Assembly (NCBI GenBank): GCA_963742735.1
Contig: CAVUMN010000003.1
Location: forward strand, 160,001 to 224,000
Length of the DNA: 64,000 bases
Origin: an uncultured Actinomycetes bacterium
Lineage (GTDB): Bacteria; Actinomycetota; UBA4738; JBBDTT01
Reading direction: 5' to 3'
The notes under the pieces are model-generated. The model was not told where the DNA came from. It searched no databases and worked only from the letters and a program-made list of their open reading frames with translations. How positions within the stretch are numbered: position 1 is the stretch's first letter; every line of letters begins with the position of its first letter. The position numbers and the translations under genes are program-made. Below, piece after piece: positions 1,859 through 28,476 of the stretch.

Positions 1859-2202
1859 TTCGGGAGCGCGGCCACGTATCCGTACGCCGCCCTGGCGAGC
1901 TCGGACCAGCGTTTGGACTGGGCGACGGGGATGGCGACCCACTCCTTCATCGGACGGTTCTGGCCGCTGGGGTCGAACAGGTGGGCGCCCTTGATCGCCA
2001 TCGCCTCGCCGTGGGCGGGAACGCCGAGCTTGAAGACGAGCTCCTTGCCCCACAGGCCGACGAACATCTTGCCGTTCGCCTTGAGAGAGGGCATGCCCAT
2101 CATCTTCGTCCGCTGCGTGGGCGTGCTCGCGGCCAGCTCGTCCGCGATCGCCTCGTACGCCTTCAGCGCCCTCGGGTCCGGCGCCGGCATCTCCATCGGC
2201 AT
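1855..2202 (-). CDS. TfoX-N-like small protein
   Basis: KMMGMPSLKANGKMFVG...FDPSGQNRPMKEWV; TAGGCT -10 box 6 nt upstream of ATG. Confidence 0.65.
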   Translation of the reverse strand: MPMEMPAPDPRALKAYEAIADELAASTPTQRTKMMGMPSLKANGKMFVGLWGKELVFKLGVPAHGEAMAIKGAHLFDPSGQNRPMKEWVAIPVAQSKRWSELARAAYGYVAALPK

Positions 2203-2256
2203 GGAGGAAGCCTACCGCCGCCCGCGAGTACGATTGACCGTGGAAGGAGGTCGACG

Positions 2257-3171
2257 ATGACCTACGCGGAGCGGACGGCGGAGTTCAAGGCGCGCATCGA
2301 CGCCGGCGAGAAGATCGAGGCCGGCGACTGGATGCCGGACCAGTACCGGCAGGCGGCGTTGAAGTTCATCGAGATGCACGCGAACTCCGAGGTCATGGGG
2401 GCCCTCCCCGAGCGCGAGTGGATCCCGCGGGCCCCGTCGCTGCGCCGCAAGCTCTCCTTGACCGCCAAGGTCCAGGACGAGGTGGGACACGGGCAGATCC
2501 TGTACCGCGTCGCCGAGGACCTCGGCAAGAGTCGCGAGGCGATGTTCGGCGACCTGGTCAACGGCCGGACCAAGTTCCACAACGTCTTCCACTACCCGAC
2601 CGAGACGTGGGGCGACGTCGCCGTCATCGGCTGGCTCATCGACGGCGCCGCGCTCGTGACGCAGAAGGCCCTGCTGGACGCGAGCTACGCGCCGTACGTC
2701 CGGGCGATGCGCCGCATCTGTCCCGAGGAGTCCCTGCACCTGCGCCACGGCGAGGACCTCACCCTGGAGCTGTGCAGCGGCAGCGACGCGCAGCGCGCGA
2801 TGTTCCAGGACGCCGTGAACCGGTGGTGGCGGCCGATCATGCACTTCTACGGCCCCCCCTCGAACCCGGAGAAGGACGTCCTCCTGTACTGGGGGATCAA
2901 GACCAAGACCAACGAGGCGCTGCGCCAGGAGTTCTTCTCGACGTACGTCCCGAAGCTGTGGGACCTCGGGATCTCGGTCCCGGACGACAAGCTCGCCTGG
3001 AACGGGACGGTGGGTGAGTGGGACTGGTCGGACCCGGGCTGGGACGACTTCTGGGAGGTCGTGCGAGGGCGCGGGCCGATGACCTCCGTCCGCCTGCTGT
3101 ATCGCAAGTCCATGTGGGACACCCACGCCTGGGTGCGCGAGGCGTTCGCCGGCCTGCCCCGCGTGGCCTGA
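2257..3171 (+). CDS. paaA: 1,2-phenylacetyl-CoA epoxidase subunit A
   Basis: KIEAGDWMPDQYR, HANSEVMG, AKVQDEVGHG and ICPEESLH diiron ExxH motifs; AAGGAGG RBS. Confidence 0.95.
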   Translation: MTYAERTAEFKARIDAGEKIEAGDWMPDQYRQAALKFIEMHANSEVMGALPEREWIPRAPSLRRKLSLTAKVQDEVGHGQILYRVAEDLGKSREAMFGDLVNGRTKFHNVFHYPTETWGDVAVIGWLIDGAALVTQKALLDASYAPYVRAMRRICPEESLHLRHGEDLTLELCSGSDAQRAMFQDAVNRWWRPIMHFYGPPSNPEKDVLLYWGIKTKTNEALRQEFFSTYVPKLWDLGISVPDDKLAWNGTVGEWDWSDPGWDDFWEVVRGRGPMTSVRLLYRKSMWDTHAWVREAFAGLPRVA

Positions 3172-3178
3172 CCGCCGC

Positions 3179-3529
3179 GTGGACGTCTGGGACGTGCTCC
3201 AGCAGCGCGTGGACGGGGAGGAGCTCACGCTGGCGGGCTCGATCAACGCGCCGTCGCTCGACGTCGCTCTGATGCTCGCTCGCGAGACCCATTTCCGCCA
3301 CGGTGAGGGCGTGAACTTCGCCGTCCGCCGTCGCGGTGAGGACGAGGTGCACGTATGCGCCGACCCGACCGCGCTCGGCGGCGTGATCGACCGGTCGTAC
3401 CGCCGCCAGGACGGCTACGTCGGGGTGGGCGCCAAGCTCCGGCGCGTCCGTGAGCAGCTGGCCGGCCGCGGCCTGGTCATCGAGGGCCACCGTCCTCCGG
3501 CCCACGCCCACGCACAGGCCGATGGCTGA
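3179..3529 (+). CDS. paaB: 1,2-phenylacetyl-CoA epoxidase subunit B (divergent)
   Basis: WDV...AGSINAPSLDVALMLARETHFRHGEG and DRSYR match the PaaB pattern; lies between paaA and paaC. Confidence 0.75.
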   Translation: MDVWDVLQQRVDGEELTLAGSINAPSLDVALMLARETHFRHGEGVNFAVRRRGEDEVHVCADPTALGGVIDRSYRRQDGYVGVGAKLRRVREQLAGRGLVIEGHRPPAHAHAQADG

Positions 3530-4397
3530 GGATCCCCGCCGGACGCTGCTGCTGGCGCTCGCCGACGACGAGCTCGTCATCGGCCACCGTCACTCGGAGT
3601 GGACCGGATGGGCCCCCCACATCGAGGAGGACTTGGCCTTCTCCTCGATCGCCCAGGACGAGATCGCCCACGCGCGCCTGCTGTACGAGCTCGCGGCGGA
3701 GCTCGACGGCGACACCGGCGGCGTGGACGCCCTGGCCCTGGGCCGGCCGGCGGCCGGCTACCGGCACGCCGTGCTCTGCGAACGGCCCAACGGCGGCTGG
3801 GGCCGCACGATCGCCCGCCAGTACCTGTACGACACCGCGGACGCGGTGCGGCTCGGCGCCCTGGCCGGGTCGAGCTGGAAGGACCTTGCCGACCGAGTCC
3901 GGCTCATGCAGCTCGAGGAGCGCTACCACCTGGACCATGCGGGGACGTGGTTCGAGCGGCTCGCCAACGGCCCGGTGGAAGCCCGCCAGCACTATGCCGA
4001 CGGGCTCGCGTCGACGGTCGGAGAGGCGATGGCGCTGTTCGAACCGGTCCCCGGCGAGGAGGAGCTGGTCTCCGAGGGGGTCCTTCCCCGTTCGAACGAA
4101 CAGCTGCTGGCCGAGTGGCTGGAGGGCCTCGGCACCGCGCTGGAGGCGGTCGGCCTGGACTGGGTCCTGTCGGACACCGGCGGCGAAGCCGGCGAGATGG
4201 TCCCGACGTCCTCCGGAGAGGTCGAGGCGGCCCCCACGATCACCGTTCCGGGGCTCGTACGGCGCGACGGAACCTGGGCTCACGAGGGCGGCTTCGCCGG
4301 CGAGGGAGGACGGCTTGGCCGGCACACCGAGGACTTCGTGGCACTCTGGGACGAGATGACCGCCCTGTATCGCGCCCATCCCGGAGCGTCGTGGTGA
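3522..4397 (+). CDS. paaC: 1,2-phenylacetyl-CoA epoxidase subunit C
   Basis: LADDELVIGHRHSEWTGWAPHIEEDLAFSSIAQDEIAHAR, EERYH, GRHTEDF, C-terminal HPGASW. Confidence 0.95.
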   Translation: MAEDPRRTLLLALADDELVIGHRHSEWTGWAPHIEEDLAFSSIAQDEIAHARLLYELAAELDGDTGGVDALALGRPAAGYRHAVLCERPNGGWGRTIARQYLYDTADAVRLGALAGSSWKDLADRVRLMQLEERYHLDHAGTWFERLANGPVEARQHYADGLASTVGEAMALFEPVPGEEELVSEGVLPRSNEQLLAEWLEGLGTALEAVGLDWVLSDTGGEAGEMVPTSSGEVEAAPTITVPGLVRRDGTWAHEGGFAGEGGRLGRHTEDFVALWDEMTALYRAHPGASW

Positions 4398-4915: not shown

Positions 4916-6006
4916 TCTCGCTGCGCGAGGTCACGAAGGTGTTCCCGGGCGCGACCGAGCCGGCCGTCAACGCGCTTTCCCTGGAGATCGGCGAGGGCGA
5001 GACCGTCGTCCTGGTCGGGCCGTCGGGATGCGGCAAGACCACGACGATGAAGATGATCAACCGGCTGATCGAGCCGACCTCGGGCGAGATCTGGGTCGGC
5101 GACGTCAACGTGATGGAGCAGGACCCCGCGAAGCTGCGCCGCGGGATCGGCTACGTCATCCAGACGATCGGGCTGATGCCCCACCGCACGGTGGCGCAGA
5201 ACATCGCGATCGTCCCCAAGCTGCTCGACTGGGAGGACGGGCGCATCGAGGGTCGCGTCGACGAGCTGCTGGAGATCTTCCATCTGGACCCTGCGCTCAA
5301 GCATCGGTATCCGGCCGAGCTCTCCGGGGGGCAGCGCCAGCGCGTGGGCGTGGCACGGGCACTGGCCGGCGACCCGCCAGTGATGCTGATGGACGAGCCC
5401 TTCGCCGCGGTCGACCCGATCGTTCGGGGCAGGCTCCAGGAGCAGTTCCTCGAGATTCAGGACCGTCTGCGCAAGACGATCGTGTTCGTCACCCACGACA
5501 TCGACGAGGCCATCAAGATGGCCGACCGGATCGCGATCCTGAACGTCGGCGGGATCCTCGAGCAGTTCGACACGCCCGAGGTCATCCTGCGCTCGCCTGC
5601 CAACGAGTTCGTGGAGCAGTTCGTCGGTGCCGAGCGCGGCCTGAAACGCCTGGCGCTGATCCCGGTCTCGGCCATCGAGGTCGAGCAGGGCCCCGTCGTG
5701 TCGCCGGACGCGACCGCGGCCGAGGCGCGCAAGGTCATCAAGGAGCTCGGGATGGGCTGGACGAGCGTGGTCGCCGACGGCGAGCTCCTCGGCTGGATCG
5801 ACGAGGAGTCGCTGAAAGGAAAATCGACCGCGGTCGAGGCCGGGCCCCGCAGGTTTAGCGCGTACGTGACCGAGCGCGACTCGCTCCGTCAGGCCCTGGA
5901 CTCGATCGTCACCTCGCAGACGAACGTCGCGGTCGTCGTCACCGAGGGTCAGCACTACAAGGGCATCCTCACCCTCGAGCGGGTCTCGCAGGAGATCGTG
6001 TCGTGA
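4912..6006 (+). CDS. Osmoprotectant-type ABC transporter ATP-binding subunit (OpuCA/OsmV-like) with C-terminal CBS-like region
   Basis: Walker A GPSGCGKTT, LSGGQRQR, LLMDEPF, FVTHD; ATGA overlap with paaD. Confidence 0.92.
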   Translation: MISLREVTKVFPGATEPAVNALSLEIGEGETVVLVGPSGCGKTTTMKMINRLIEPTSGEIWVGDVNVMEQDPAKLRRGIGYVIQTIGLMPHRTVAQNIAIVPKLLDWEDGRIEGRVDELLEIFHLDPALKHRYPAELSGGQRQRVGVARALAGDPPVMLMDEPFAAVDPIVRGRLQEQFLEIQDRLRKTIVFVTHDIDEAIKMADRIAILNVGGILEQFDTPEVILRSPANEFVEQFVGAERGLKRLALIPVSAIEVEQGPVVSPDATAAEARKVIKELGMGWTSVVADGELLGWIDEESLKGKSTAVEAGPRRFSAYVTERDSLRQALDSIVTSQTNVAVVVTEGQHYKGILTLERVSQEIVS

Positions 6007-8569: not shown

Positions 8570-10189
8570 TCACGCCGCGCCGGAGCCTGCGCCGGAGTCC
8601 TTCGAGGCGGCCTCGAGCTGTTCTTGCGAGGGGTTCTTGATCCCGAACCCGTTGATGGCGGCGCCGAGGAACAGCAACGCCGAGGCGACCACGACGGCCA
8701 CGTGCAGGGCCCCGGTCGAGGCCTCCTTGTCGGCGTCGGCGATCTTCGCCTCGACCGGCGGGGGGAGCTCGAGCTTCGTGAAGTCCGGCGGGTTGAGCGG
8801 GGCCACCGCCTCCCGGAAGTCGGGGCTCTCGGTGTTCACCTCCGGGACCTTCTCTCCGATCGTGGCGTAGAACGAGGAAACGATCGCGATGAAGATCACG
8901 GCCGTCACCAGGGGCGCCCCGACGCGAGAGATGGCGTTGTTGATCGCCGAGCCGACCCCGGCGTTCTGCTTCGGGATGGAGGTCATGACGGCGGTGGTCA
9001 GCGGCGCGACCATCACCGCGAGGCCCGCTCCGAAGACCAGCAGGGCCGGGAGGAAGTCCACCAGGTAGTCGCCGGGAGGCAGCAGGGACCTTCCCCCGCC
9101 GGACCCGAACACCCACGGCGCGCTGGTGGCGGGAAGACGGACCAGCCAGAGCAGCCCCAGGCCCATCAGGGCCGGACCGACGGTCATGAACAGCCGCGGG
9201 CCGTGCCGGGCGGCGAGCTTTCCGAACCGGGTCGACAGGAAGGTGAGCAGCAGCGCGCTGGGGATCCCGGCGATGCCGGCCGCGGGCTCGTTGTAGCCGA
9301 GCGTGCCGATCATGAACAACCCCTGGAACGTGAAGCTGACGTAGAGGGCTCCGTAGATGACGAACGTGGAGAGGTTCGTCACGGTGAAGTTCCGGGACTT
9401 GAAGAGCGAGGGCGGGACGAGCGGGTTCCGTCGCTTCAGCATCAGGACCGGGAGGGCGATGAGGGCCAGGCCTCCCACCGCGAGGGCGATGAAGGCCTCG
9501 GTTCCGGTCCACCGGGTCTGTTCTCCGCGGATCGCGCCGAAGGCGAGTCCGCCCACGGCCACGACCACCGCGAGGGAGCCGACCCAGTCGAAGTGCCCTG
9601 CGGCGTTCTCGTCCCGCGACTCGGGGACGTGGCGCAGGGTCGCCCACACGGCCAGCAGCAGGAACGGGACGTTGATGAAGAAGGCCGCCCGCCAGGAGAT
9701 CGAGTTCACGAGCACGCCGCCGACGAACGGGCCGAGGATCGCCGTCGCCGCGGAGGCTCCCGCCCAGATCCCGTAGGCGCGACCCTGCTCTTCGCCCTCG
9801 AAGGTCGCCGTGATGATGGCCAGCGAACCGGGAACGACGAACGCGCCGGCGGCGCCCTGCAGGATCCGGAACGCGATCAGGCTCTCCATGTTCCACGCGA
9901 TGCCGCACAGCACCGACGTGGCCAGGAACCCCAGCAGCCCGATGGCGAAGACCTTGCGCCGCCCGAAGAAGTCGGTGATGGCTCCCGCGAGGATGAGGAG
10001 GGCCGACAGCGTCACGAAGTAGAAGCCGTAGACGTAGGACTGCCCCTCGAAGGCGCTCGACACGAACGAGCGGGGGAGCTCCTTGCCGATCGCTTTCAGG
10101 GCCAGGTTCACGACCGAGGTGTCCAGGAAGACGATCCCGGAGCCAAGGATGACGGCGATGAGGGTCCATCGCTTCTGGGTCTTCGTCAC
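8570..10189 (-). CDS. MFS transporter, DHA2 (EmrB/QacA) family
   Basis: FLDTSVVNLAL, GAITDFFGRRK motif A, SWRAAFFINVP; many hydrophobic segments. Confidence 0.92.
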   Translation of the reverse strand: MTKTQKRWTLIAVILGSGIVFLDTSVVNLALKAIGKELPRSFVSSAFEGQSYVYGFYFVTLSALLILAGAITDFFGRRKVFAIGLLGFLATSVLCGIAWNMESLIAFRILQGAAGAFVVPGSLAIITATFEGEEQGRAYGIWAGASAATAILGPFVGGVLVNSISWRAAFFINVPFLLLAVWATLRHVPESRDENAAGHFDWVGSLAVVVAVGGLAFGAIRGEQTRWTGTEAFIALAVGGLALIALPVLMLKRRNPLVPPSLFKSRNFTVTNLSTFVIYGALYVSFTFQGLFMIGTLGYNEPAAGIAGIPSALLLTFLSTRFGKLAARHGPRLFMTVGPALMGLGLLWLVRLPATSAPWVFGSGGGRSLLPPGDYLVDFLPALLVFGAGLAVMVAPLTTAVMTSIPKQNAGVGSAINNAISRVGAPLVTAVIFIAIVSSFYATIGEKVPEVNTESPDFREAVAPLNPPDFTKLELPPPVEAKIADADKEASTGALHVAVVVASALLFLGAAINGFGIKNPSQEQLEAASKDSGAGSGAA

Positions 10190-10252
10190 CCGCGCCCCCC
10201 CTTGGCCGTCGCCGCTCCCAACCCGGCGGGCGAGACTAGCATTCCGGCCCGG

Positions 10253-11641
10253 ATGGACTACGACGTGATCGTTATCGGCGCCGGCGCGGCCGGGGAGGGG
10301 GCGGGGACGCTCGCCGGAGAGCTCGGAACCCGCGTCGCCGTCATCGAGAGCAATCTGGTCGGCGGGGAGTGCTCCTTCTGGGCGTGCCTGCCGTCGAAGA
10401 CCCTGCTCGACTCGGCGCGGCATCGCGCAATGGGCGCGGACTATCCCTGGGACCGGGCGGTGGCCCGCCGCGACTGGATGATCAGCCGCGAGGGCGACCT
10501 CGACTACCCCGACGACTCCGGCCACGTCCGCGGCCTGGAGTCCGCCGGCGCCGAGGTCATCCGCGGCATCGCCCGCATCGTCGGTTCGAACCGCGTGGAG
10601 GTTCGCCCGAAGGACGGCGGCGCGCCTCGAACCCTGGAGTCCCGCTCGCTGCTCGTGGCCACGGGCTCGGTTCCGGTGATCCCCGCGATCGAGGGCCTGG
10701 TCGACGCCGGCTTCTGGACGAGCCGGGAGGCCACGTCGCTGCGGCACCTGCCCTCCAGCCTGGGGATCATGGGGGGCGGCCCGGTGGGCATCGAGATGGC
10801 CCAGGTCTACGCGCGGTTCGGCGTGAAGACCACGGTCATCGAGGGCAACGACCGCATCCTGGTCCGCGACCACCCCCGGTCCTCGGCGGTCGTCGCGGAG
10901 CAGCTGGAACGCGAAGGGGTTGAGCTCCGGCTCGGCGTGAAGGCCACCGCGGTCCGGGCCGGCGGCGCCGGGCGGATCGTGGAGCTCTCGGACGGGTCGA
11001 CCGTCGACATCGCCGAGTTGGTGGTCGCGGTCGGCCGCGCCCCCATCGGCCTGACCGACCTGGGCGTCGAGGAGGCCGGCGTGACGCTGAACGACCGTGG
11101 CGTTAGCCAGCCCGACGAGCGGATGCGAGTGGCGGACGGCGTGTACGTGGCGGGCGACGCCGCCGGCGGCCTGCAGTTCACCCACGTGGCCGACTACCAA
11201 GCGCGGATCGCCGTTCGCAACGCCACGGGCGGCGACGCCGTCGCCGACCTGGAGTCCGTCCCCAAGGCGACCTACACCGACCCGGAGACCGGCGCGGTGG
11301 GGATCACGGTCGAGGACGCGACGGAGCGCGGGATCGACGCGTTCGAGGTCACCCAGGACTTCTCGGTGACCGCACGCGGCTTCACCATCGAGACGCCCAC
11401 CCGCGACGTGCGCGAGGGCGCCCCCGGGCACCTCACCGCCGTCGTCGATCGCGAACGCGGCCTGCTGGTCGGCGCCTTCGCGGCCTGCCCCGGCGCGTCC
11501 GAGCTGATCCACGAGGCCACGCTGGCCATCAAGGCCAAGGTCCCGCTGCCGGTGCTGGCCGACACGATCCACGCGTTCCCGACCGGAGCACGGGTGTTCG
11601 GGAACCTCATGGCCGAGGCCCTCAAGCGCAAGGAGGAGTGA
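10253..11641 (+). CDS. Class I pyridine nucleotide-disulfide oxidoreductase (LpdA/MerA-like)
   Basis: GAGAAG FAD motif, GGECSFWACLPSK redox disulfide, GGGPVGIE, YVAGD, C-terminal HAFPT. Confidence 0.92.
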   Translation: MDYDVIVIGAGAAGEGAGTLAGELGTRVAVIESNLVGGECSFWACLPSKTLLDSARHRAMGADYPWDRAVARRDWMISREGDLDYPDDSGHVRGLESAGAEVIRGIARIVGSNRVEVRPKDGGAPRTLESRSLLVATGSVPVIPAIEGLVDAGFWTSREATSLRHLPSSLGIMGGGPVGIEMAQVYARFGVKTTVIEGNDRILVRDHPRSSAVVAEQLEREGVELRLGVKATAVRAGGAGRIVELSDGSTVDIAELVVAVGRAPIGLTDLGVEEAGVTLNDRGVSQPDERMRVADGVYVAGDAAGGLQFTHVADYQARIAVRNATGGDAVADLESVPKATYTDPETGAVGITVEDATERGIDAFEVTQDFSVTARGFTIETPTRDVREGAPGHLTAVVDRERGLLVGAFAACPGASELIHEATLAIKAKVPLPVLADTIHAFPTGARVFGNLMAEALKRKEE

Positions 11642-12966
11642 TGGAGCCCGAACCGACCCCCGAGGAGGAGCTGGCGCGCGTCCTGGAGTCCGCGAAGCGG
11701 CTGGGCGTGGAGATCGACGAAGCCGAGGCCCGCCAATGGCTGGAGGCAATGGCCGCCGAGGAGACCGGGGTCGGCGACGTGGTCCTCGACACCGAGACCG
11801 GCGTGTACGGCCACCGCGTGACCATGCTCGACTTCTCGCCGAAGGAGCTCGACCGGTTCCGGCGCATCGCCGAGATCGTCGAGATCCCGGACGTGCCGGG
11901 CCGTGTCGAGACCGCGATCGCGCTGTCCGGTTCGGCCGCGCAGTCGAAGATCCAGAGCTACCCCGGCGACGCCGACTTCTTCGAACGGATCAACATCCTG
12001 GCGCCCACGCGCGAGGAGGCGTGTCTGATCCTGGCCGAGACCATGCGCCAGAAGGTCCTCGACTCGCTGGACGGGCCGACGCACCGGTTCATCGAGGCCA
12101 AGTGGAGCAACTACCCCCGCGACGTGGAGCACGGGGGGAAGCCGCGCTCCAAGGGCTCGCCGATCGCGTGGAACGCCCAGGAGGTGGCCGACGGCCGCAT
12201 CGAGGTGCAGGAGCCGGACGGCTCGACCGCGCCGATCGCCTGGAACGATCTGGCCGGCGACCCGGGCTGGTGCAAGCTCGACTGGATCGTCGCCGATCCC
12301 ATCCGCCGGACGCTGTGCAACGCCAGCAACATGTTCGACGTGACGTGGGAGGCGCCGGACGGATCGATCACGCCGCTCGACGGCTACCTGGACCCCTACT
12401 TCCAGGAGGTGTACCTGGAGGCGTCCTCGATCCCGGTGTTCTCCAAGGTCGCGAAGCACCTGATGGGCAACGCCCTCGATCAGTACGTCGACCAGCTCGA
12501 GCACGAGATCCACAAGTACGCGAACGCACCGGAGAACTACGGCAAGGTCGCCAAGCGGATGTACAACGTGTTCCGGCTCACGGGCTCCTACGACGAGGCC
12601 GCGTACCTTCGCGAGCTCTTCGACGAGCCGGCGACCGTCCTGTACCAGGTGGCCGCGGTGATCCGGTCGCTCGACGAGGCCGCCGGCGAGGGCTCCGACG
12701 TCCCGGTCGAGACCCTGGTCGCTCAGGCGGACTCGCTCATCGACGCGGTCCAGGGGGCGGTGCCGGACGACCTCGAGGTGGCGATCGTCGACCGGCTCAC
12801 CCAGATCCGGGAGAACCTGCTGACCGGAGGCGACCCCAAGGACCGGACCGAGCACGTTCGGGCGGCGGTCGAGGACGTCTCGGCGATGGTGAACGACTTC
12901 TTCTACGAGAAGCTCGTCGCCGTCCCGGAGATCAAGGCCCGGCTGGACGCCGCGCGCGGGACCTGA
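11641..12966 (+). CDS. Hypothetical protein with Pol-beta nucleotidyltransferase-like motif
   Basis: LSGSAAQSKIQSYPGDADFFE (GS-x10-DxD) and candidate third Asp in CKLDWIV; helical C-terminal half; strong GC3 coding bias. Confidence 0.7.
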   Translation: MEPEPTPEEELARVLESAKRLGVEIDEAEARQWLEAMAAEETGVGDVVLDTETGVYGHRVTMLDFSPKELDRFRRIAEIVEIPDVPGRVETAIALSGSAAQSKIQSYPGDADFFERINILAPTREEACLILAETMRQKVLDSLDGPTHRFIEAKWSNYPRDVEHGGKPRSKGSPIAWNAQEVADGRIEVQEPDGSTAPIAWNDLAGDPGWCKLDWIVADPIRRTLCNASNMFDVTWEAPDGSITPLDGYLDPYFQEVYLEASSIPVFSKVAKHLMGNALDQYVDQLEHEIHKYANAPENYGKVAKRMYNVFRLTGSYDEAAYLRELFDEPATVLYQVAAVIRSLDEAAGEGSDVPVETLVAQADSLIDAVQGAVPDDLEVAIVDRLTQIRENLLTGGDPKDRTEHVRAAVEDVSAMVNDFFYEKLVAVPEIKARLDAARGT

Positions 12967-12980
12967 CCGGTCAGGTCCCG
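12957..12980. terminator. Perfect palindrome over two convergent stop codons, probable bidirectional terminator
   Basis: CGGGACCTGA-CCGG-TCAGGTCCCG; no U tract. Confidence 0.55.
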
Positions 12981-13762
12981 GTGAACTTCGCCTCGCGCTT
13001 CTCGAGGAAGGCCAGGATGCCCTCGGCGAAGTCGTGCGTCTCGCCGAGCTCCTGCTGCACCTCGGCCTCGCGGTCCAGGACGTCGGCCAGCGACATGCCC
13101 CACGCCTCGCGCATCACGCGCTTCGACGCGGCGATCGCCTTCGTGGGCAGGGCGGCGAGCTTCGCGGCGTACGCGGCGAGCTCGTCCCGGAAGCTCTCGG
13201 CGTCGACCACCACGCTCGCCAGGCCGATCCGGTAGGCCTCCTCGGCGGAGACGCGGTCGCCGGTGATCGACAGCTCGAGGGCCTTGGCGTGGCCCACGAT
13301 CCGGGGAAGCAGGTAGTTCCCGCCGGAGTCCGGCAGGAGCCCGATCTTCACGAACGCCTGGATGAACGACGCGGCGCTGGATACGACGCGGACGTCCGCG
13401 GCGCAGGCCAGCGACACGCCGGCGCCGGCGGCGACTCCGTTCACGCCGGCCACGACCGGCTTCGGCAGGTCGATGATCGACAGGATCAGCCGGTTGTACG
13501 TCTGGCGGAGCAGCCCCGCGAAGTCGATCTTGGTGAGGTCGGTCCCCAGGCTCGGGTCCTTCAGATCCTGGCCGGCGCAGAACCCGCGGCCCTCTCCGGT
13601 GATCACCACGCACCGGACCTCGTCGTCGCCCGCGGCCTCGGCGACGGCGTCGCCCGCCTCGGCGGAGAGCTGGCCCGTCAGGGCGTTCAGCGAGTCCGGG
13701 CGGTTGAGCGTCAGCCAGGCGACGGGCCCGTCGACCTCGTAGCGGATCGTCTCGTACGTCAC
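12971..13762 (-). CDS. paaG: Enoyl-CoA hydratase/isomerase, PaaG-like
   Basis: LNRPDSLNA, GRGFCAGQDL, GVAAGAG, FIQAFVKIGLLPDSGG; near paaABCD. Confidence 0.8.
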   Translation of the reverse strand: MTYETIRYEVDGPVAWLTLNRPDSLNALTGQLSAEAGDAVAEAAGDDEVRCVVITGEGRGFCAGQDLKDPSLGTDLTKIDFAGLLRQTYNRLILSIIDLPKPVVAGVNGVAAGAGVSLACAADVRVVSSAASFIQAFVKIGLLPDSGGNYLLPRIVGHAKALELSITGDRVSAEEAYRIGLASVVVDAESFRDELAAYAAKLAALPTKAIAASKRVMREAWGMSLADVLDREAEVQQELGETHDFAEGILAFLEKREAKFTGT

Positions 13763-14148
13763 GGGTTCAGCTCCTTCGCGTCGACGTAGCGCTGCACGAA
13801 CGTGCCGCGGCCCACCGTGCCCTTCGGTCCGCGAACCTCGACCTCGGCCACGCACTGCTCCTCGTCGGCGAACGTGCACCGGGCGAGGATGGCCAGGCGG
13901 TCGCCGGGGTGGGCCGCCCGCAGATGGGTCGCCTCGATTCGGTACCCGACGGCGTCCTCACCCTCGGGCATGTGACGGTCGACGAGCAGCCGCCCGGCCT
14001 CCTCCATGTGACGGACCATCCAGGACGTCCCGTACCGCCGGCTCATGACCCGGTCGAACAGGACGGCGACCATGTCCTCGGTCACCTCGACCTCGTGGGA
14101 GGCCTCCTCGCCCTGGGCCGGACGCCCCGTGCTTCGCCGCTCGGACAC
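13759..14148 (-). CDS. Hotdog-fold thioesterase, FlK-like
   Basis: YGTSWMVRHME...ATHL gives the Thr/Glu/His triad pattern; coupled to paaG. Confidence 0.75.
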   Translation of the reverse strand: MSERRSTGRPAQGEEASHEVEVTEDMVAVLFDRVMSRRYGTSWMVRHMEEAGRLLVDRHMPEGEDAVGYRIEATHLRAAHPGDRLAILARCTFADEEQCVAEVEVRGPKGTVGRGTFVQRYVDAKELNP

Positions 14149-14169: not shown

Positions 14170-14955
14170 CTACGCGGTGCTCCGGCGGCGAGCCTCCCAC
14201 TCCGAGGCGCCGAGGAAGACGGCGCCGCCGACCAGCGCGACGAGGCCCCAGGTGTCGCCGGCGCTGCCCGCGTAGTTCGGGAACACCACCGAGGCCAGGC
14301 CGAGGACCATCGCCGCCAGTCCCGCGCAGCGCGCCGGGACGAGCCAGCCAGGCATGCGCAACGAGGCGAGGAGCCCGACCAGCGCGAGCGTGATGGCCAA
14401 CGCCGCCATCTGGGCCCAGTGGTGCTCGTCCACGTGCGAGTCCCCCTCCACGCCCAGACGCTGGAGCTCGGCCATGCTCAGGGCGTAGGCGGTCAGGGGG
14501 ACGGCGGCCGCGACGGCGAGCGCCGCCAGGATCGGGCTCGGCCGGCGCTCCGGCCGCACGAACCGAGCGCGGAAGGCCGGGCCGCCGATCGCCAGGAGCG
14601 TCCCCACGGCCACCGCGCCCGGCAGAAAGCCGATGACGAGCCACACGGGGTCGGCCGCGAGCGCCGCGGCGACCAGGCCGCCCAGAGACGCCAGCGCCAC
14701 CTGATACAGCGGCGCGACCTGCCTGCGGGCGGCCACCGCGAACAGCGGCACCGCGAGCAGGATCCCGACGAGGATCCCGCCCCCCAGGTCGTGGACCCGG
14801 TGGACCAGCCGCTCGCCGCCCTCGAACCACCCAAGGATCAGGGCGGGGAAGCCGAACAAGGCGAGGCCGAACAGCACGCCGACCACGACGGCGATCAGGC
14901 GAAACGCCCTCGGTCGCGTGATCTGGTCTCCGGTGCTCTCCTCGGTGGCGGCCAC
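14170..14955 (-). CDS. Hypothetical multi-pass membrane protein
   Basis: About 8 hydrophobic segments; HRVHD and HVDEHHW motifs; AGAGGAGG RBS. Confidence 0.75.
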   Translation of the reverse strand: MAATEESTGDQITRPRAFRLIAVVVGVLFGLALFGFPALILGWFEGGERLVHRVHDLGGGILVGILLAVPLFAVAARRQVAPLYQVALASLGGLVAAALAADPVWLVIGFLPGAVAVGTLLAIGGPAFRARFVRPERRPSPILAALAVAAAVPLTAYALSMAELQRLGVEGDSHVDEHHWAQMAALAITLALVGLLASLRMPGWLVPARCAGLAAMVLGLASVVFPNYAGSAGDTWGLVALVGGAVFLGASEWEARRRSTA

Positions 14956-14967
14956 GCGTGCCTCCTC

Positions 14968-16245
14968 TCAGCCGATGACTCGGCAGACCTCGATGGGCTC
15001 GGATCGCCCCTTCACCTGGCGCGGGCCCACCGGCTCGGCGGTGACGCCGGGCGCCCGCGCGACGGTGGACGCGGACGCCAGGACCTCGCCGCCGGCCGCT
15101 TCGGACTCCAGGCGCTGGGCGACGTTCACCGCGTCGCCCAGGACGGTGTACGCGAGCCGGCCGCCGCCGCCGACCGTGCCCGCGACCACCGTGCCGGTGT
15201 TGACGCCGATGCCGACGCCGAGGGGCGGCTTGCCCTCGCGGACATCCTCCGCGTTCAGCTCCGACTGGCGGGCCTGCATGGCCAGCGCGCAGCGCAGGGC
15301 CCGCTCGGGGTGGTCGGGGAGCGGGTCCGGCGCACCGAACACGGCCATCACGGCGTCTCCGCTGAACTTGTCCAGGGTGCCACCGTGGTCCAGGACGACC
15401 TCGGCCATCGCGGTCAGGTGGCGGGCGATGACCGTGGCCAACTCGCGCGCCGGCAGCTCCTCGGAAAGCGTCGTGAATCCCCGGATGTCGGAGAAGAGGA
15501 TCGTCGCCTCGACCTCCTCCTGTTCCCCCAGCCCCTCGGCCGAGGCGAGCCGGTCGGCCACCTGTGAGGGAACGAACGACCGCAGGCTGCGAGTGGACGT
15601 CTCCCGGTCGACGACCGCGGAGTGGAGGCGCTTGAGCTCGTCGACGGCCACGGCGGCGCCGCGTCCGACCTCGCCCGCGAGCCGCTCGAAAAGCTCCGTG
15701 ACCCGGCGGTCGATCGCCTCCTGGGTCGTGCCCAGCCGTTCCGCCATCTCGGCGTAGCCCAGGCCCTGTGCCATCAGGTCGAGCACCTCGCGGTCGGCGT
15801 CGCCGCGGTCCTCGCGCCCGGACAGCCGCTCGGCGATCACCGGGTCGATGGCCGTGCCCCCGGCGGCCACCTCGCGGATGGCCCGCACCAGCTCGTCGCC
15901 CTCGGCCACCCGCTCCTTCAGCAGATAGGCCAGCCCGGACTCGCCCCCGCCCAGCAACGCGAGGGCGTACGCCTCGTCGTCGTGGGCGGACAGGACCACC
16001 ACGCCCGTGCCGGGGTGCCGCCGGCGGATCTCGTGGGCGGCCTCGATCCCCTCGAGCTGGAAGTTCGGGGGCATCTTGATGTCGGTCACCACCACGTCCG
16101 GAAGCTCGGCGTCCGCAACCTCCAGGAGCGAGGGCGCGTCGGCGGCCACGCCGACCACGGTGACCCCGTCGGACGCGTCCAGGAGTGCGCGCACGCCCTC
16201 GCGGACCAACACGTTGTCCTCGCCCAGCACCACCCGGATCGTCAC
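14968..16245 (-). CDS. Response regulator (REC plus LuxR-like HTH) fused to class III adenylate/guanylate cyclase
   Basis: REC: EDN, VVTDIKMPP, YLLKE; HTH-like REVLDLMAQGLGYAEMAERL; cyclase FSDIRGFT, DKFSGD, YTVLGDAVNVAQRL. Confidence 0.92.
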   Translation of the reverse strand: MTIRVVLGEDNVLVREGVRALLDASDGVTVVGVAADAPSLLEVADAELPDVVVTDIKMPPNFQLEGIEAAHEIRRRHPGTGVVVLSAHDDEAYALALLGGGESGLAYLLKERVAEGDELVRAIREVAAGGTAIDPVIAERLSGREDRGDADREVLDLMAQGLGYAEMAERLGTTQEAIDRRVTELFERLAGEVGRGAAVAVDELKRLHSAVVDRETSTRSLRSFVPSQVADRLASAEGLGEQEEVEATILFSDIRGFTTLSEELPARELATVIARHLTAMAEVVLDHGGTLDKFSGDAVMAVFGAPDPLPDHPERALRCALAMQARQSELNAEDVREGKPPLGVGIGVNTGTVVAGTVGGGGRLAYTVLGDAVNVAQRLESEAAGGEVLASASTVARAPGVTAEPVGPRQVKGRSEPIEVCRVIG

Positions 16246-16268: not shown

Positions 16269-16946
16269 ATGGCCCGCCTCCGCGTCGTCTTCGCCGAGGA
16301 CAACTATCTCGTACGCGAGGGAACCGCGGCCCTGCTCGCGGAGGTCGGCGACGTCGAGATCGTCGCCGCGGTGGACGACCTCCCCTCGCTCCTCGAGGCC
16401 GTCGCGGAGCATCGGCCCGACGCGGTGCTCACCGACATCCGCATGCCGCCGACGCATACCTCCGAGGGGATCGACGCCGCCCGGCAGATCCGCGCGGAGT
16501 ATCCGGAGACCGGCGTCGTCGTCCTGTCGCAGTTCGCGGAGGACGCCTACGCCTACGACCTGCTGAAGGGCGGCGCCTCCGGCCTCGGGTACCTGCTCAA
16601 GGAGCGGGTCGCCGACGTCGACGAGCTCGTGCGCGCGCTCGGCGAGGTCGCGCGGGGCGGCTCCGTGCTCGATCCGAAGGTGGTCGAGGCCCTCGTCTCC
16701 CATCGCGAGCGGCTCGCCGACTCGCCCGTGGCGCAGCTGACCGAGCGCGAGCGCGAGGTCCTCGGCCATATGGCCGAGGGCATGAACAACGCCGCCATCG
16801 CTCGCGCCCTGGTACTGACGGACCGCGCCATCGAGAAGCACATCAACTCGGTGTTCCACAAGCTCGGCCTCTCCGAGGAGCCCGACGTGCACCGCCGGGT
16901 CATGGCCGTCCTCGCGTTCCTCCGCGAGGCGGGTCCGCCGGAGTAG
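16269..16946 (+). CDS. NarL/LuxR-family response regulator
   Basis: EDN, TDIRMPP, YLLKERV, LTEREREVLGHMAEGMNNAAIA, IEKHINSVFHKL. Confidence 0.95.
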   Translation: MARLRVVFAEDNYLVREGTAALLAEVGDVEIVAAVDDLPSLLEAVAEHRPDAVLTDIRMPPTHTSEGIDAARQIRAEYPETGVVVLSQFAEDAYAYDLLKGGASGLGYLLKERVADVDELVRALGEVARGGSVLDPKVVEALVSHRERLADSPVAQLTEREREVLGHMAEGMNNAAIARALVLTDRAIEKHINSVFHKLGLSEEPDVHRRVMAVLAFLREAGPPE

Positions 16947-18343: not shown

Positions 18344-20362
18344 ATGGCGATGACTGGGAGGACCGCCAAACGGCTGGCCTGGTCCGGCGTGGCGTGGTTC
18401 GGGCTGATGGGAGCAATCGGGGTCACGCTGAACCTCCTGGACGGCTCGTACTCGCTCGAGGACATCGTGCTGCTCCCCGTGATGTTCGGGGCGTTCGCGT
18501 CGGTCGGCGCGGTCATCGCGTCGCGCCAACCCTCCAACCCGATCGGCTGGCTGTTCGTGTTGATCGCGTTGGGGCCCCCGACGTCGTTCGCGGCCGAGGC
18601 TTACGCCTACCGGGCTCTCATCGGCGACCCGGGCTCCCTCCCCGCCGGTCAGTACGCGGGCTGGGTCTCGAACTGGGCGTGGGGGACCGTGCCGCTTCTC
18701 CTGTTCCTGCTCCTGCTGTTCCCGACCGGGAGGCTTCCCAGCCGGCGGTGGCGACCCGTGGCCTGGGCGATCGGGATCTGGTTCGGGCTCGCGATGATCG
18801 GGTCCATGACCGTGTCGGGGGAGATGGACAACCTCCCGGGGAGCCGGAACCCGTTCGGGATCGAGGCCCTGGAGGGGGTCATCCGTCCCTTCCTCCAGGA
18901 CATCGCCTACGCCGGGTTCTCCGTGGGGGCGCTCCTGGCTGCCTCGTCGCTGATCTTCCGATACCGCCGGGCCCGGGACGAGGAGCGCCGGCAGCTGAGG
19001 CTGTTCACGTATGCGGCGTTCCTCAGCGGGATCCTCCTCACGATCGTGGAGTACGTGCCGGACGGAGTTGGGAGCGTGCTCTTCGCGCTCGTCCTGGCCC
19101 TGCTCACGACCGCGACCGCCGTGTCCATCCTCAAGTTTCGGCTCTATGCGATCGATCTGGTCGTACGCAAGACGCTCGTGTACGGAGTCCTCGCCGCCCT
19201 CGTTACGGGCCTCTACCTGCTCCTGGTCGTGGCCGTCCCGGCGGCGATCCTCGGCACGAGCGCGGATGGATCCAGCGTCCTCATCATTCTCGGCACGGCG
19301 GTGCTCGCGCTCCTCCTGCTTCCCCTGCGCCGCCGGATGGCGCACCTTGCGAACCGGCTCGTGTACGGGAAGCGGGCGACGCCCTACGAGGTCCTGTCGG
19401 AGTTCGCCGGCCGCGTCGGCGGGTCGTACGGGGTCGAGGACGTTCTGCCGCGGATGGCCCGGGTCCTCGCGGAGGGGACGGGCGCCGAGCGAGCCGAGGT
19501 GCTGCTGCGGTCCGAGGGAGGCCTTCGCCCGGCGGCGGTCTGGCCCGCCGACGCGGAGCCGTTGGAGGTCCGTGACCTGGTCGTGCCCGTCGTTCACCAG
19601 GGCGAGGACCTCGGCGCGCTGGCCGTCACCAAGCCGCGCGGGGAGCCGTTGACGCCGGCAGAGGAGAAGCTCGTCCGCGACCTGGCCGCGCAGGCGGGAC
19701 TGGTCCTTCGCAACGTGGGGCTCTTCGAGGACCTCCGGGCCTCGCGGGTCCGCCTGGTCGAGGCGCAGGACGCCGAGCGCCGCCGGCTGGAACGCGACAT
19801 CCACGACGGCGCCCAGCAGCACCTGGTGTCGTTGATGGTCCGGCTGCGCCTGGCCGAGAGCCTCATCGCCAAGGATCCCGCGAAGGCCACGGCCGCAGTG
19901 GCCGAGGCGAAGGATCAGGCGAACGACGCCCTGGAGACGCTGCGCGATCTGGCCAGGGGCATCTATCCGCCCTTGCTCGCGGACCAGGGCCTGCCCGCGG
20001 CGCTCGAGGCCGCGGCCCGCAAGGCGCCACTCCCCGTCGACGTCCGGCCGGACGGCGTGGGTCGGTACCCCCAGGCCGCCGAGGCCGCGGTTTACTTCTG
20101 CGTGCTGGAGGCTCTCCAGAACGTCACGAAGTACGCCGAGGCCAGCCGAGCCGCCGTGCGCCTGTCGAGCGAGCCCGGCGCGCTTCGCTTCGAGGTCACC
20201 GACGACGGGCGGGGCTTCGACCTCTCGGCGGTCGCGCGCGGGTCCGGGACCCAGAACATGGCCGACCGGCTCGAGGCCCTCGGCGGTTCGCTGGAGATCC
20301 GCAGCGCCCCGGGAGAGGGGACCACGGTGACGGGCCGCGTCCCGACAGGGTTGGCCCAATGA
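18344..20362 (+). CDS. Membrane sensor histidine kinase 1 (multi-TM, GAF-like, HisKA_3, HATPase)
   Basis: ERDIHDGAQQHL H-box, EALQNVTKY N-box, DDGRGF G1 box. Confidence 0.95.
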   Translation: MAMTGRTAKRLAWSGVAWFGLMGAIGVTLNLLDGSYSLEDIVLLPVMFGAFASVGAVIASRQPSNPIGWLFVLIALGPPTSFAAEAYAYRALIGDPGSLPAGQYAGWVSNWAWGTVPLLLFLLLLFPTGRLPSRRWRPVAWAIGIWFGLAMIGSMTVSGEMDNLPGSRNPFGIEALEGVIRPFLQDIAYAGFSVGALLAASSLIFRYRRARDEERRQLRLFTYAAFLSGILLTIVEYVPDGVGSVLFALVLALLTTATAVSILKFRLYAIDLVVRKTLVYGVLAALVTGLYLLLVVAVPAAILGTSADGSSVLIILGTAVLALLLLPLRRRMAHLANRLVYGKRATPYEVLSEFAGRVGGSYGVEDVLPRMARVLAEGTGAERAEVLLRSEGGLRPAAVWPADAEPLEVRDLVVPVVHQGEDLGALAVTKPRGEPLTPAEEKLVRDLAAQAGLVLRNVGLFEDLRASRVRLVEAQDAERRRLERDIHDGAQQHLVSLMVRLRLAESLIAKDPAKATAAVAEAKDQANDALETLRDLARGIYPPLLADQGLPAALEAAARKAPLPVDVRPDGVGRYPQAAEAAVYFCVLEALQNVTKYAEASRAAVRLSSEPGALRFEVTDDGRGFDLSAVARGSGTQNMADRLEALGGSLEIRSAPGEGTTVTGRVPTGLAQ

Positions 20363-22389
20363 CGCAGAAGGTCGCCGCCCGGCTCGCCTGGGGTCTGTGG
20401 GGCCTCACCCTGGCGATCTCGGCCGCCGCTCTCGTGGCGTGGGTGCTCTCGCTCGACACGCCGACGCAGGCCTACGGGTTCCGGGGGGTGGCCCTCCTGC
20501 ACGCCATGGCCTTCGCGACGGCGGGGGCTCTCATCGCGTCGCGCAGGTCGACGCATCCGCTGGGCTGGATCTTCTGTGCGGTCGGAGCCCTGATCGCCGT
20601 CCAGGAGCTCGGCTACGAGTACGCGGTGTACGCCCTCGAGCATGCTGCCGTCGCCGAGCTGGCCCGGGTGGGTGCCTGGATCGTGAACTGGATCTGGGTG
20701 GTGTGGATCTTCGGGGTCGGTATGTTCGGGCTCCTGCTGTACCCGGACGGACGCCTTCCCTCTCGCCGTTGGCGGCCCGTCGCCTGGTTCGACGGGGTCG
20801 CGATCGTAATGCTCGGCGTGACCTCGGCGTTCAAACAGGGAACGCTCGACAACGTCCGTGAGTACACGAACCCGTTCGGGTTCCTTCGGGGCACCACGTT
20901 CGAGGTGCTCGATACCCTGGGCATCCTCCTGGCGATGACCGGGATCGTCCTGTCCGTCGCCTCGATCGTCGTGCGGATGCGGCGGGCTCGCCCGGAGGAG
21001 CGCCTGCAGCTTCGGTGGTTCCTCCTCGCCGGCGCCGTCCTGGTAGTCGGTCTGGGTACGAACGTCTTCGAGAACGTCCTGTCGGACAAGGTCATCGGAT
21101 CCTCCGTCCTCGCCGCGCTCGCGCTGTTCCCGGTGGCTCTCGGCATCGGGATTCTCAAGTACCGGGCGTTCGACCTGGACGTCGTCATCAGCAAGGCCGT
21201 CGTCTACGGCATCCTGCTGGTGATCATCACGCTCGACTACCTGGCCATCGTGGTGGGCATCGGGACGCTCGTCGGCGACCGTGCCAGCCCCGTCCTCACC
21301 GCGGCCGCGGCGGCGATCGCGGCGCTGTCGTTCCAGCCGATCAACCGCCGGCTCACTCGGTTCGCGAACCGGTTGGTCTACGGCAAGCGGGCGACCCCGT
21401 ACGAGGTGCTCTCGGAGTTCTCCGAGCGCGTCGGCACCGCGTACTCGACCGAGGACGTCCTGCCCCGGATGGCCCGGCTGATCGTCGAGGGCACGGGCGC
21501 GACGCGCGGCGACGTGTGGCTTCGCATCGGCGACACCTGGCGGCTCGAGGCTTCGTGGCCGGCCGAAGCCCCGACGCTCTCCGCTCCCGACGACGATGAG
21601 GGTCGCCCGTTCGAGGTCCGGCACCAGGGCCAGACGCTCGGCGCCCTCAGCCTGGTCAAGCCGGCGAACGATCCGGTCACCCCGGCCGAGGAACGTCTCC
21701 TGGGCGACCTGGCCGCGCAGGCCGGACTCGTCTTGCGCAACGTGCGGCTGCTGGAGGATCTCCGCGCTTCGCGCCGCCGGCTGGTGACCGCCCAGAACGA
21801 CGAGCGGCGCCGGTTGGAGCGCGACATCCATGACGGCGCACAGCAGCACCTCGTCGCGCTGATGGTGAAGCTTCGGGTTCTGGAGGCCCTCGCGAAGAAA
21901 AATCCCGCCAGGGTGGCCGGCGCGGTCGAGGAGCTGAAGGGGCAGGCCCAGGACGCCCTGGAGACACTGCGCGACCTGGCCCGCGGGATCTATCCGCCCG
22001 TCCTCGCCGACCGGGGTTTGGCCGCGGCCCTCGAGGCGCAGACCCGTGGCGGGCCGGTGCCGGTGGCGATCAGTCCGGACGGCGTCGGCCGCCTGCCGCA
22101 GGAGGTGGAGGCCGCCGTGTACTTCTGTGTCCTGGAGGCGTTGCAGAACGTCGCGAAGTATGCCGGGGCGTCCGGGGTCGATCTGACGCTCCGTCAGATC
22201 GACGGCCAGGTCGAGTTCGAGGTCCGCGACGACGGCCGGGGGTTCGACCCAGACACCACGCCGCGGGGGTCCGGGCTGCAGAACATGGCCGACCGCCTGG
22301 AGGCGCTGGGGGGCACGCTCGTGGTCACCAGCGCGCCGGGGGGCGGGACCACGGTGGTCGGCCGTGTCCCCGCGGAGGCGCTGCGATGA
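20359..22389 (+). CDS. Membrane sensor histidine kinase 2
   Basis: ERDIHDGAQQHL, EALQNVAKY, DDGRGF, GSGLQNM; ATGA-coupled. Confidence 0.95.
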   Translation: MTQKVAARLAWGLWGLTLAISAAALVAWVLSLDTPTQAYGFRGVALLHAMAFATAGALIASRRSTHPLGWIFCAVGALIAVQELGYEYAVYALEHAAVAELARVGAWIVNWIWVVWIFGVGMFGLLLYPDGRLPSRRWRPVAWFDGVAIVMLGVTSAFKQGTLDNVREYTNPFGFLRGTTFEVLDTLGILLAMTGIVLSVASIVVRMRRARPEERLQLRWFLLAGAVLVVGLGTNVFENVLSDKVIGSSVLAALALFPVALGIGILKYRAFDLDVVISKAVVYGILLVIITLDYLAIVVGIGTLVGDRASPVLTAAAAAIAALSFQPINRRLTRFANRLVYGKRATPYEVLSEFSERVGTAYSTEDVLPRMARLIVEGTGATRGDVWLRIGDTWRLEASWPAEAPTLSAPDDDEGRPFEVRHQGQTLGALSLVKPANDPVTPAEERLLGDLAAQAGLVLRNVRLLEDLRASRRRLVTAQNDERRRLERDIHDGAQQHLVALMVKLRVLEALAKKNPARVAGAVEELKGQAQDALETLRDLARGIYPPVLADRGLAAALEAQTRGGPVPVAISPDGVGRLPQEVEAAVYFCVLEALQNVAKYAGASGVDLTLRQIDGQVEFEVRDDGRGFDPDTTPRGSGLQNMADRLEALGGTLVVTSAPGGGTTVVGRVPAEALR

Positions 22390-28466: not shown

Positions 28467-28476
28467 GCTCGGCGTC

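Follow-up and report, generated by a model that had tools for sequence, protein, structure and literature searches.

A large family of Pol-beta-type nucleotidyltransferase-fold proteins, encoded beside Cap18-type exonucleases in most related loci, and its member in an uncultured Actinomycetes bacterium

Introduction

A described parallel to the gene considered here is found in the antiphage systems that signal by cyclic oligonucleotides (CBASS), in which a cGAS/DncV-like nucleotidyltransferase (CD-NTase) may be encoded beside a Cap18-type exonuclease. Cap18 is the 3'-5' exonuclease of the type III CBASS of Escherichia coli upec-117 (10.1101/2022.01.04.474952) and the E. coli protein is PDB entry 7T2S (PMC12345164). 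A preprint places the CBASS Exo proteins in a DEDDh clade of their own, reports no activity on ordinary DNA or RNA and, for a Cap18-type enzyme, no detectable binding of single- or double-stranded DNA or RNA (10.1101/2025.03.04.641389). The same source describes selectivity for 2'-5' linkages, both in the intermediate pppA[2'-5']pG and in 2'-5' oligoadenylate, and a restraining effect on the output of the CD-NTase, with no pull-down of the Exo with cGAS (10.1101/2025.03.04.641389). The gene in question lies at 11641-12966 on the + strand of a stretch of 64,000 nucleotides (the window) of contig CAVUMN010000003.1 from an uncultured Actinomycetes bacterium, and encodes a protein of 441 aa (P0001) which a preliminary description, made from the sequence alone, took to be an orphan nucleotidyltransferase (NTase) of the Pol-beta superfamily.

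A second parallel is provided by giant viruses and virophages. The PDB titles of Mg662 of Megavirus chilensis describe a new nucleotidyl transferase, complexed with GTP in 4xul. The virophage Zamilon encodes a 442-aa protein, ORF7, that is 70% identical to Sputnik V21 (PMC3991649), and PMC3671162 gives Sputnik V21 and OLV5 no detectable domains and lists their function as unknown. Literature searches, which left most subscription journals outside, found no functional study under L544, the Mg662 PDB codes or virophage V21, no paper describing the NTase family of the window, and none with a Cap18-type enzyme beside an NTase other than a CD-NTase.

A Cap18-type exonuclease partner in related loci

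The genomic context of the family was surveyed in the best 80 loci, with relatives down to about 55% identity. One recurrent neighbour was found within 5 kb, a cluster of open reading frames (ORFs) of ~185 aa present in 64 of the 80, and where at least 700 nt of upstream flank was available the exonuclease ORF was there in 59 of 71 loci. Among 61 loci with an exonuclease ORF of at least 140 aa, 59 have it upstream of the NTase gene, on the same strand and within 400 nt, the exceptions being a downstream copy (L072) and a divergent one (L071). Two Actinomycetota-labelled loci (L010 and L041) also carry it. The next genes outwards vary, with glyS at 17 loci, rpoD and dnaG at 14 each and DUF3786 at 11, and the 12 loci without the exonuclease have no common neighbour pattern. 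An adjacency that outlasts rearrangement and a change of surroundings points to a functional pair.

The partner, which emerged from a neighbourhood survey of the kind proposed in the preliminary description, belongs to the Cap18 clade. It keeps the DEDDh motifs D-x-E, N-x3-D and H-x4-D, and its profile matched 7T2S in the PDB at E 6.5e-65 and RNase T at E 7e-12. With the Bellilinea partner alone the match to 7T2S had E 1.2e-42 and spanned 177 residues, of which we counted ~73 as identical. The PADLOC model PDLC00753 ('Effector / Exonuclease') matched all 12 partners scanned, with E from 6e-47 to 2e-71. Relatives of the partner, 44-51% identical, occur on 97 plasmids and the three plasmids inspected all carry them in CBASS operons, in two cases alongside genes for SAVED(-HNH) effector, SMODS nucleotidyltransferase, ThiF-type E1-E2 and JAB proteins, in the third alongside HORMA, AAA ATPase and Cap17-like genes.

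The family resembles the CD-NTases of CBASS in standing, at most related loci, beside a Cap18-clade DEDDh enzyme, and the two have a GS...DxD pattern in common. They differ in that sequence similarity is not significant and structural similarity is weak, in that the NTase family lacks nearby Cap effector, HORMA/TRIP13 and E1-E2/JAB genes, and in that it is chromosomal, strongly conserved and not found on plasmids or phages. A PADLOC scan of 87 ORFs from 13 diverse loci, together with 11 ORFs of the window, found no CD-NTase or cyclase model near the pairs in the 13 loci, so the family sits in the position that the CD-NTase holds in CBASS. The view of the pair as an ordinary CBASS operon was rejected, since neither a cyclase nor a Cap effector model was matched in that scan. 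Other PADLOC matches, to sigma factor/MzaA, DnaG/DRT and kinases/PD-T4-6 models, were set aside as housekeeping cross-matches, and a weak 'E1-E2' match in one locus (L023) is a 2-hydroxyacid dehydrogenase by Pfam. Unlike Cap18-bearing CBASS, the window has no Cap18-type gene within its 64 kb. When the family profile was aligned by hhalign with the SMODS enzyme of a Cap18-bearing plasmid operon, the single aligned stretch placed GS on GS and DxD on DxD.

The same association may be read in another way, as a housekeeping pair for RNA maturation in which the NTase would be a template-independent RNA 3'-end nucleotidyltransferase, acting in tailing or repair of tRNA or other RNAs, and the DEDDh exonuclease of the relatives would trim the same ends. 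The 3' ends of RNA are indeed substrates of DEDDh enzymes such as RNase T, which is matched by the profile of the partner; a housekeeping context of rpoD, dnaG, glyS and tsaD, high conservation and the lack of any copies found on mobile elements would also suit such a role. However, the partner is far closer to Cap18 than to RNase T, and a Cap18-type enzyme was inactive on ordinary DNA and RNA in the preprint (10.1101/2025.03.04.641389). The structural matches that bear on this alternative are weak, as described below, and it is considered unlikely.

Two further neighbours were observed in parts of the family. A 2H or LigT-like phosphoesterase gene (2_5_RNA_ligase2, Pfam E 5e-12) lies ~320 nt downstream of the NTase gene, on the same strand, in 10 loci (L011, L026, L042, L045, L046, L048, L051, L058, L073 and L074). 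It was considered as a second hint of 2'-5' chemistry and given little weight: the 10 loci belong to a single Anaerolineaceae subclade and therefore count as one event. In an exonuclease-free Anaerolineales locus (L036) a gene for an AbiEii-type nucleotidyltransferase toxin lies at 5178-5873 (+), ~2 kb upstream of the NTase gene, and is probably a coincidental neighbour.

Predicted fold and structural relatives

An AlphaFold2 model of the full-length protein, built on a diverse alignment of 34 sequences (A2), reached a predicted local distance difference test score (pLDDT) of 88.2 and a predicted template modelling (TM) score of 0.86. A Foldseek search of the PDB with this model returned three matches at E<=0.001, all of them Mg662 (4ams, 4xul and 4amq), with probability 1.00, TM scores of 0.48-0.51 relative to the query and 0.57-0.60 relative to the target, and 424-453 aligned columns. 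A model of the core alone (residues 86-335, pLDDT 81.2) again had the three Mg662 entries on top, with 4amq (E 4e-4) alone at or below 0.001 and 4ams (1.4e-3) and 4xul (1.8e-3) next. Among viral models in BFVD, 17 matched at E<=0.001, every one of them a virophage or giant-virus protein, with TM scores up to 0.62 on the query length and 0.76 on the target length. The best was the 442-aa protein of Zamilon (E 2e-13, TM 0.62 over 442 columns), and the matches included V6BPH6 (Zamilon), A0A7D3V789 (Fadolivirus, 'V21 virophage-like'), A0A1L4BK94 (mavirus) and an 'L544-like' protein.

It is the whole three-part architecture, not the core alone, that the bacterial NTase has in common with Mg662 and the V21-like proteins, at 9-17% identity in the structural alignments. 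No sequence homology to Mg662 was detected, the A2 profile giving none of 4AMQ, 4AMS and 4XUL in the PDB at E<=10. The hosts also differ, the viral proteins belonging to eukaryotic giant viruses and virophages and the NTase described here to bacterial chromosomes. Because the full-length fold is common to the bacterial family and Mg662, the virophage V21-like proteins are, on the evidence of these models, probably nucleotidyltransferases too.

The Pol-beta-type fold proposed in the preliminary description is therefore borne out by the modelling and Foldseek comparison that it recommended, in which Mg662 is a robust match and GS and DxD are conserved. The wider superfamily that it named, with CD-NTases, cGAS and OAS, holds for the Pol-beta part, and the specific likeness to these enzymes is weak (Foldseek E ~1e-2 to 1e-1, TM below 0.2). 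OAS makes 2'-5' oligoadenylate. In OAS, cGAS and Mab21, as in TENT5 (FAM46), a Pol-beta core is followed by a helical lobe as in this family, but their TM scores to the NTase model are below 0.25 and there is no Pfam match. Matches of this kind, to MB21D2 (E 8.5e-3), TENT5A, B and C (FAM46B at E 1.7e-2), DncV, CdnB, CdnC, OAS1 (E 0.1), AadA and a 'tRNA processing enzyme' (3wfp, E 0.056, TM 0.17), all remained below the Foldseek threshold. The core-only model does not reproduce the cGAS, OAS and DncV matches, and the label 'cGAS/OAS-like' is weak for that reason.

For the RNA 3'-end alternative the relevant matches are TENT5A, B and C, which are non-canonical poly(A) polymerases, and the 'tRNA processing enzyme' (3wfp and 3wfo). 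It is also favoured by the weak matches to the core alone, in which TENT5C is the sole NTase; these TENT5 and tRNA-enzyme matches are, however, at E 0.017 or worse with TM below 0.25.

Sequence searches place the protein in no named family, in line with the preliminary description. With P0001, Pfam gave just two sub-threshold DUF matches and NCBIfam no match; PADLOC gave 0 matches at E<=0.01 for the orthologue of locus L023, and the PDB returned nothing real for the P0001 sequence or, at E<=10, for the A2 profile. Class I adenylate cyclase, GlnE/GlnD and CCA-adding enzymes, with which it had been grouped, were likewise without Pfam or NCBIfam match to the family. An Atlas search with a homologue led back to unnamed clusters of the family itself and otherwise to a giant-virus NTP_transf_2 cluster, a weak lead at score 0.89. 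A match to an already characterised family was not encountered, since for Mg662, the closest solved relative, the searches found no paper on function.

Conserved residues

The gene and the motifs quoted in the preliminary description are all present: LSGSAAQSKIQSYPGDADFFE occupies residues 95-115, CKLDWIV residues 211-217 and GKVAKRMYNVFR residues 301-312. The ORF list and its translation give 11641-12966 (+) as a frame of 441 aa, and the third-position guanine plus cytosine (GC) content of 0.83 for the stop-to-stop frame 11107-12966, together with thousands of full-length relatives, puts this gene far beyond chance. Its features are as follows.

11641..12966, + strand: gene for the NTase-fold protein P0001, stop codon 12964-12966
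11641..11895, + strand: N-terminal domain (residues 1-85) with two helices, then a beta-hairpin and another helix
11923..11934, + strand: LSGS, the hG[GS] motif, residues 95-98, where the first core strand ends
11968..11976, + strand: D110-A-D112, the metal-binding DxD, opening the second core strand (110-120)
12280..12381, + strand: candidate third carboxylates D214 (12280-12282), D233 (12337-12339) and D247 (12379-12381)
12541..12576, + strand: GKVAKRMYNVFR signature, residues 301-312, in the C-terminal lobe helix 300-314

In the secondary structure of the model, LSGS is preceded by a strand (89-95) and followed by a helix from residue 97. Residues S98, D110, D112, D247, Y282, R306, Y308, N309, R312 and A320 are invariant in the 34 sequences of A2, and near-invariant positions of the N-terminal domain are W33, G57, D64 and R74. 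In a distant set of 35 full-length representatives G97 was retained in 32 and S98, D110 and D112 in 30 each. Since they are conserved both in A2 and in the distant set, GS and DxD, as first noted, behave like catalytic residues at the level of sequence. The Asp of CKLDWIV (D214) is where the preliminary description put it, but its suggested role as the third carboxylate is doubtful, as it is kept in 22 of the 35 distant representatives compared with 32 for D233 and 33 for D247; D251 is kept in 31. The basic patch lies on a helix of the C-terminal lobe. Retention there is high (K302 32/35, R306 34/35, Y308 33/35, N309 33/35, R312 35/35), which makes GKVAKRMYNVFR the most conserved signature of the family by alignment, and its helix may bind the triphosphate of the nucleoside triphosphate (NTP) or the acceptor.

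These patterns bear on whether the protein might be inactive or structural, merely keeping an NTase fold, as might hold for V21-like proteins. The viral relatives are uncharacterised, as the entries for Sputnik V21 and OLV5 illustrate (PMC3671162), and five of the 35 distant representatives are without D110 and D112 in the alignment. Against this, no variation is seen in GS, DxD or the C-lobe K/R/Y/N motif either in the clade of the window or in the set of 32 close relatives, and very little in distant members, and the closest solved relative, Mg662, was crystallised with GTP according to the title of 4xul. An inactive or structural protein is considered highly improbable.

Size, spread and inheritance of the family

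Far from being the orphan it was first called, the protein has 6153 relatives at E<=0.001 in a word-indexed search with 8000 scored candidates, and an exhaustive phmmer search, with clustering at 50% identity, gave 501 clusters, of which 143 scored E<=1e-30. None of the 120 relatives listed has a precomputed Pfam domain. In one-genome-per-species contigs, at least 571 of 599 pattern-matched stretches encode a relative of the NTase. The best 80 loci come mostly from metagenome-assembled genomes of Anaerolineae and other Chloroflexota, with a few labelled Actinomycetota, and include the cultured Bellilinea caldifistulae and Levilinea saccharolytica. The window protein is mostly 57-60% identical to its relatives and column identity averages 72% over 32 sequences.

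A maximum-likelihood tree of 96 rows (the 80 loci, the window and 15 other representatives) groups the window with L001 and P0002-P0005, with support of 100 in the Shimodaira-Hasegawa-like approximate likelihood ratio test. Within this clade the tree has the Actinomycetota label only on L001; P0003 was so labelled in the word-indexed search. A transfer of the gene from Chloroflexota to the lineage of the window was considered, but no direction can be claimed because the clade of the window is sister to a Chloroflexota-rich clade and not nested within it.

Fused or longer forms were not found at E<=0.001, in a search that is itself weak evidence on this point. Two long proteins were noted in which the family domain is C-terminal, in P0181 (1067 aa) behind a PQQ_2 beta-propeller and in P0233 (1291 aa) behind AbfB, FBA and PLAT domains.

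The flavoprotein reductase upstream of the window gene

In the window the immediate upstream neighbour is a reductase gene, with a ribosome-binding site for the NTase gene near its end.

10253..11641, + strand: class-I flavoprotein disulfide reductase, 462 aa (Pyr_redox_2, Pyr_redox, Pyr_redox_dim)
11630..11638, + strand: Shine-Dalgarno-like AAGGAGGAG, 2 nt ahead of the NTase ATG and still within the 3'-terminal part of the reductase gene

The reductase gene probably starts with the ATG at 10253, and the protein has a GxGxxG motif and the redox motif CSFWAC. It falls below all NCBIfam equivalog cut-offs (MerA 267 bits against 454, Lpd 263 against 409) and, judged by its sequence, belongs to no specific named subfamily. 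Its TGA (11639-11641) has one base in common with the NTase ATG (11641-11643), which agrees with the overlap reported in the preliminary description and adds a strong ribosome-binding site to it. The pair is flanked upstream by a gene for a major facilitator superfamily (MFS) transporter on the - strand and downstream by a convergent PaaG-like enoyl-CoA hydratase gene, and no promoter-like or terminator-like sites were found in 9900-13300.

A coupling of the two proteins was part of the preliminary description and would fit an enzyme that transfers a nucleoside monophosphate to a protein or small molecule (an NMPylase) and works with the reductase, its target being for example a thiol cofactor, redox protein or xenobiotic. 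The one-base overlap and ribosome-binding site, the same gene order in L001 (reductase 81% and NTase 83% identical, with full synteny that includes an OpuAC gene) and the presence of AadA aminoglycoside nucleotidyltransferase (5luh) among the weak Foldseek matches speak for it. Yet the reductase stands upstream of the NTase in only one of the 80 related loci, L001, and L001 is too close a relative for its shared gene order to say much; the other 79 loci are without a redox partner, the reductase is of no specific subfamily, and the partner across the family is the exonuclease. Such a function is rated very unlikely. The coupling holds as a local overlap and not as a property of the family, and co-translation with the reductase is read here as a local operon arrangement.

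Proposed function

That P0001 is a nucleotidyltransferase is regarded as very probable. In the proposed mechanism it would be an active two-metal enzyme, built of a helical/hairpin domain at the N-terminus, the Pol-beta-type core and a helical lobe at the C-terminus, that converts NTPs into a short 2'-5'-linked linear or cyclic oligonucleotide serving as an intracellular signal. In most relatives the neighbouring Cap18-type phosphodiesterase would destroy the product or an intermediate and set a threshold, as reported for CBASS. An enzyme that makes a 2'-5'-linked oligonucleotide or cyclic nucleotide, as part of a module with no effector beside it, is by analogy the favoured reading and is put forward tentatively; it is the association with a Cap18-clade enzyme that suggests a 2'-5' product. 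The analysis shows the gene itself, the size of the family, its fold relative, the conserved motifs, the Cap18-clade partner of relatives and the lack of an effector alongside; catalytic activity, NTP substrate, linkage chemistry and signalling role are all inferred. The messenger synthase envisaged in the preliminary description gains support from the Cap18-clade pairing of the relatives. No sequence link to CD-NTases was found.

A number of observations weigh against this proposal and should be set beside it. Some concern the enzyme itself. The hhalign comparison with the SMODS enzyme gave a probability of 0.2 and E 0.3, PADLOC gave 0 families for P0001 at E<=10 and Pfam found nothing real for 34 diverse members at E<=1. 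The sub-threshold structural matches to NTases are weak (E 8.5e-3 to ~0.1, TM below 0.25), and with the core-only model those to cGAS, OAS and DncV disappear and TENT5C stays (E 0.056). There are three candidates for the third carboxylate, with the unequal retention given above, and the literature searches, with most subscription journals outside them, found no paper on the reaction or function of Mg662, giving for this protein one data-mining paper on GTP binding. Others concern the context. No effector or receptor gene is conserved beside the pair in the loci surveyed, no Cap effector model was matched in the 87 and 11 ORFs scanned with PADLOC, the neighbours of the family include the housekeeping-type genes named above, and an identity of ~57-60% across Actinomycetota- and Chloroflexota-labelled records is more like that of a conserved chromosomal gene than of a defence gene. 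No copy of the family was found on 72,556 plasmids or in 50,697 phage records. The partner profile found nothing at E<=10 in a six-frame translation of the 64 kb window, and L001 is without a Cap18-type gene in its 7.8 kb. Finally, the 2'-5' specificity of Cap18-type enzymes has one preprint as its sole source, and the upec-117 report states that catalytically dead Cap18 left protection against phage lambda unaffected (10.1101/2022.01.04.474952).

In the lineage of the window the NTase would be co-translated with the reductase and has no adjacent Cap18-type gene. Because the catalytic and C-lobe residues are intact in its clade, the enzyme of the window is, on sequence grounds, probably active and locally uncoupled from the phosphodiesterase. 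What would set the proposed synthase and its partner apart from known pairs of a synthase and a Cap18-type enzyme is, in our estimation, a different synthase family, the lack of an effector and conserved chromosomal inheritance.

Other genes of the window

The preliminary description stated that no CBASS effector is adjacent, and among the 11 window ORFs compared with PADLOC models none matched an effector within ~5 kb of the NTase gene. It also placed two class III cyclases in the region, and two cyclase-domain ORFs were recovered. One, at 14968-16245 (-), is by Pfam a fusion of a response-regulator receiver with a class III cyclase; it also matches the PycC models of Pycsar at E 8e-28, with no evident Pycsar effector, and these were dismissed as domain-level cross-matches. 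The other is an ORF with a cyclase domain at ~27928-29490 (+), found by blastp only at E 2e-12.

Beyond the first cyclase come a LuxR-type response regulator (16269-16946), then, at 18344-24509 (+), a tandem array of three paralogous histidine kinases of 672, 676 and 707 aa with HisKA_3 and HATPase_c domains, and then a fourth ORF of 683 aa (24506-26557) with no Pfam match at 1e-5. Every start in this array, up to 26557, overlaps the preceding stop. Between the thioesterase listed below and the response-regulator cyclase there is a 261-aa ORF at 14170-14955 (-), which has a third-position GC content of 0.95 and no match in Pfam, NCBIfam or PADLOC; it is probably a real gene.

Genes of phenylacetate-catabolism type are split around the reductase/NTase locus, at 1819-4397 and 12971-14148, and between the two parts are a glycine-betaine-type ATP-binding cassette (ABC) transporter, the MFS transporter and the reductase/NTase pair.

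1819-3171 and 3450-4397: PaaA/PaaC-family ORFs, by Pfam and NCBIfam scans
12971-13879, - strand: PaaG-like enoyl-CoA isomerase
13759-14148, - strand: FlK/4HBT thioesterase

Biological significance

A more far-reaching version of the proposal can be formulated, which as a whole is considered unlikely. In it the Mg662/V21-like NTase and the Cap18-type phosphodiesterase would form a conserved chromosomal second-messenger module outside defence, in Chloroflexota and some Actinomycetota, where a 2'-5' signal would be made and policed without an abortive-infection effector; the lineage would have been taken up by giant viruses and virophages, which would provide a first functional lead for the ORFans Mg662 and Sputnik V21, and the synthase of the window re-wired under a redox operon.

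In sludge, sediments and mats the Anaerolineae are dominant, though little understood as a group, and the NTase family is abundant in them. If the proposed function is correct, Cap18-type 2'-5' phosphodiesterases would not be accessories of CBASS alone and would also police a second NTase family, unrelated by sequence, and the enzymes of oligonucleotide signalling would extend beyond CD-NTases, GGDEF, DAC and Cas10. It would also define a family of thousands of members that is without a Pfam entry, and would provide a testable function for giant-virus Mg662 and the virophage V21-like proteins.

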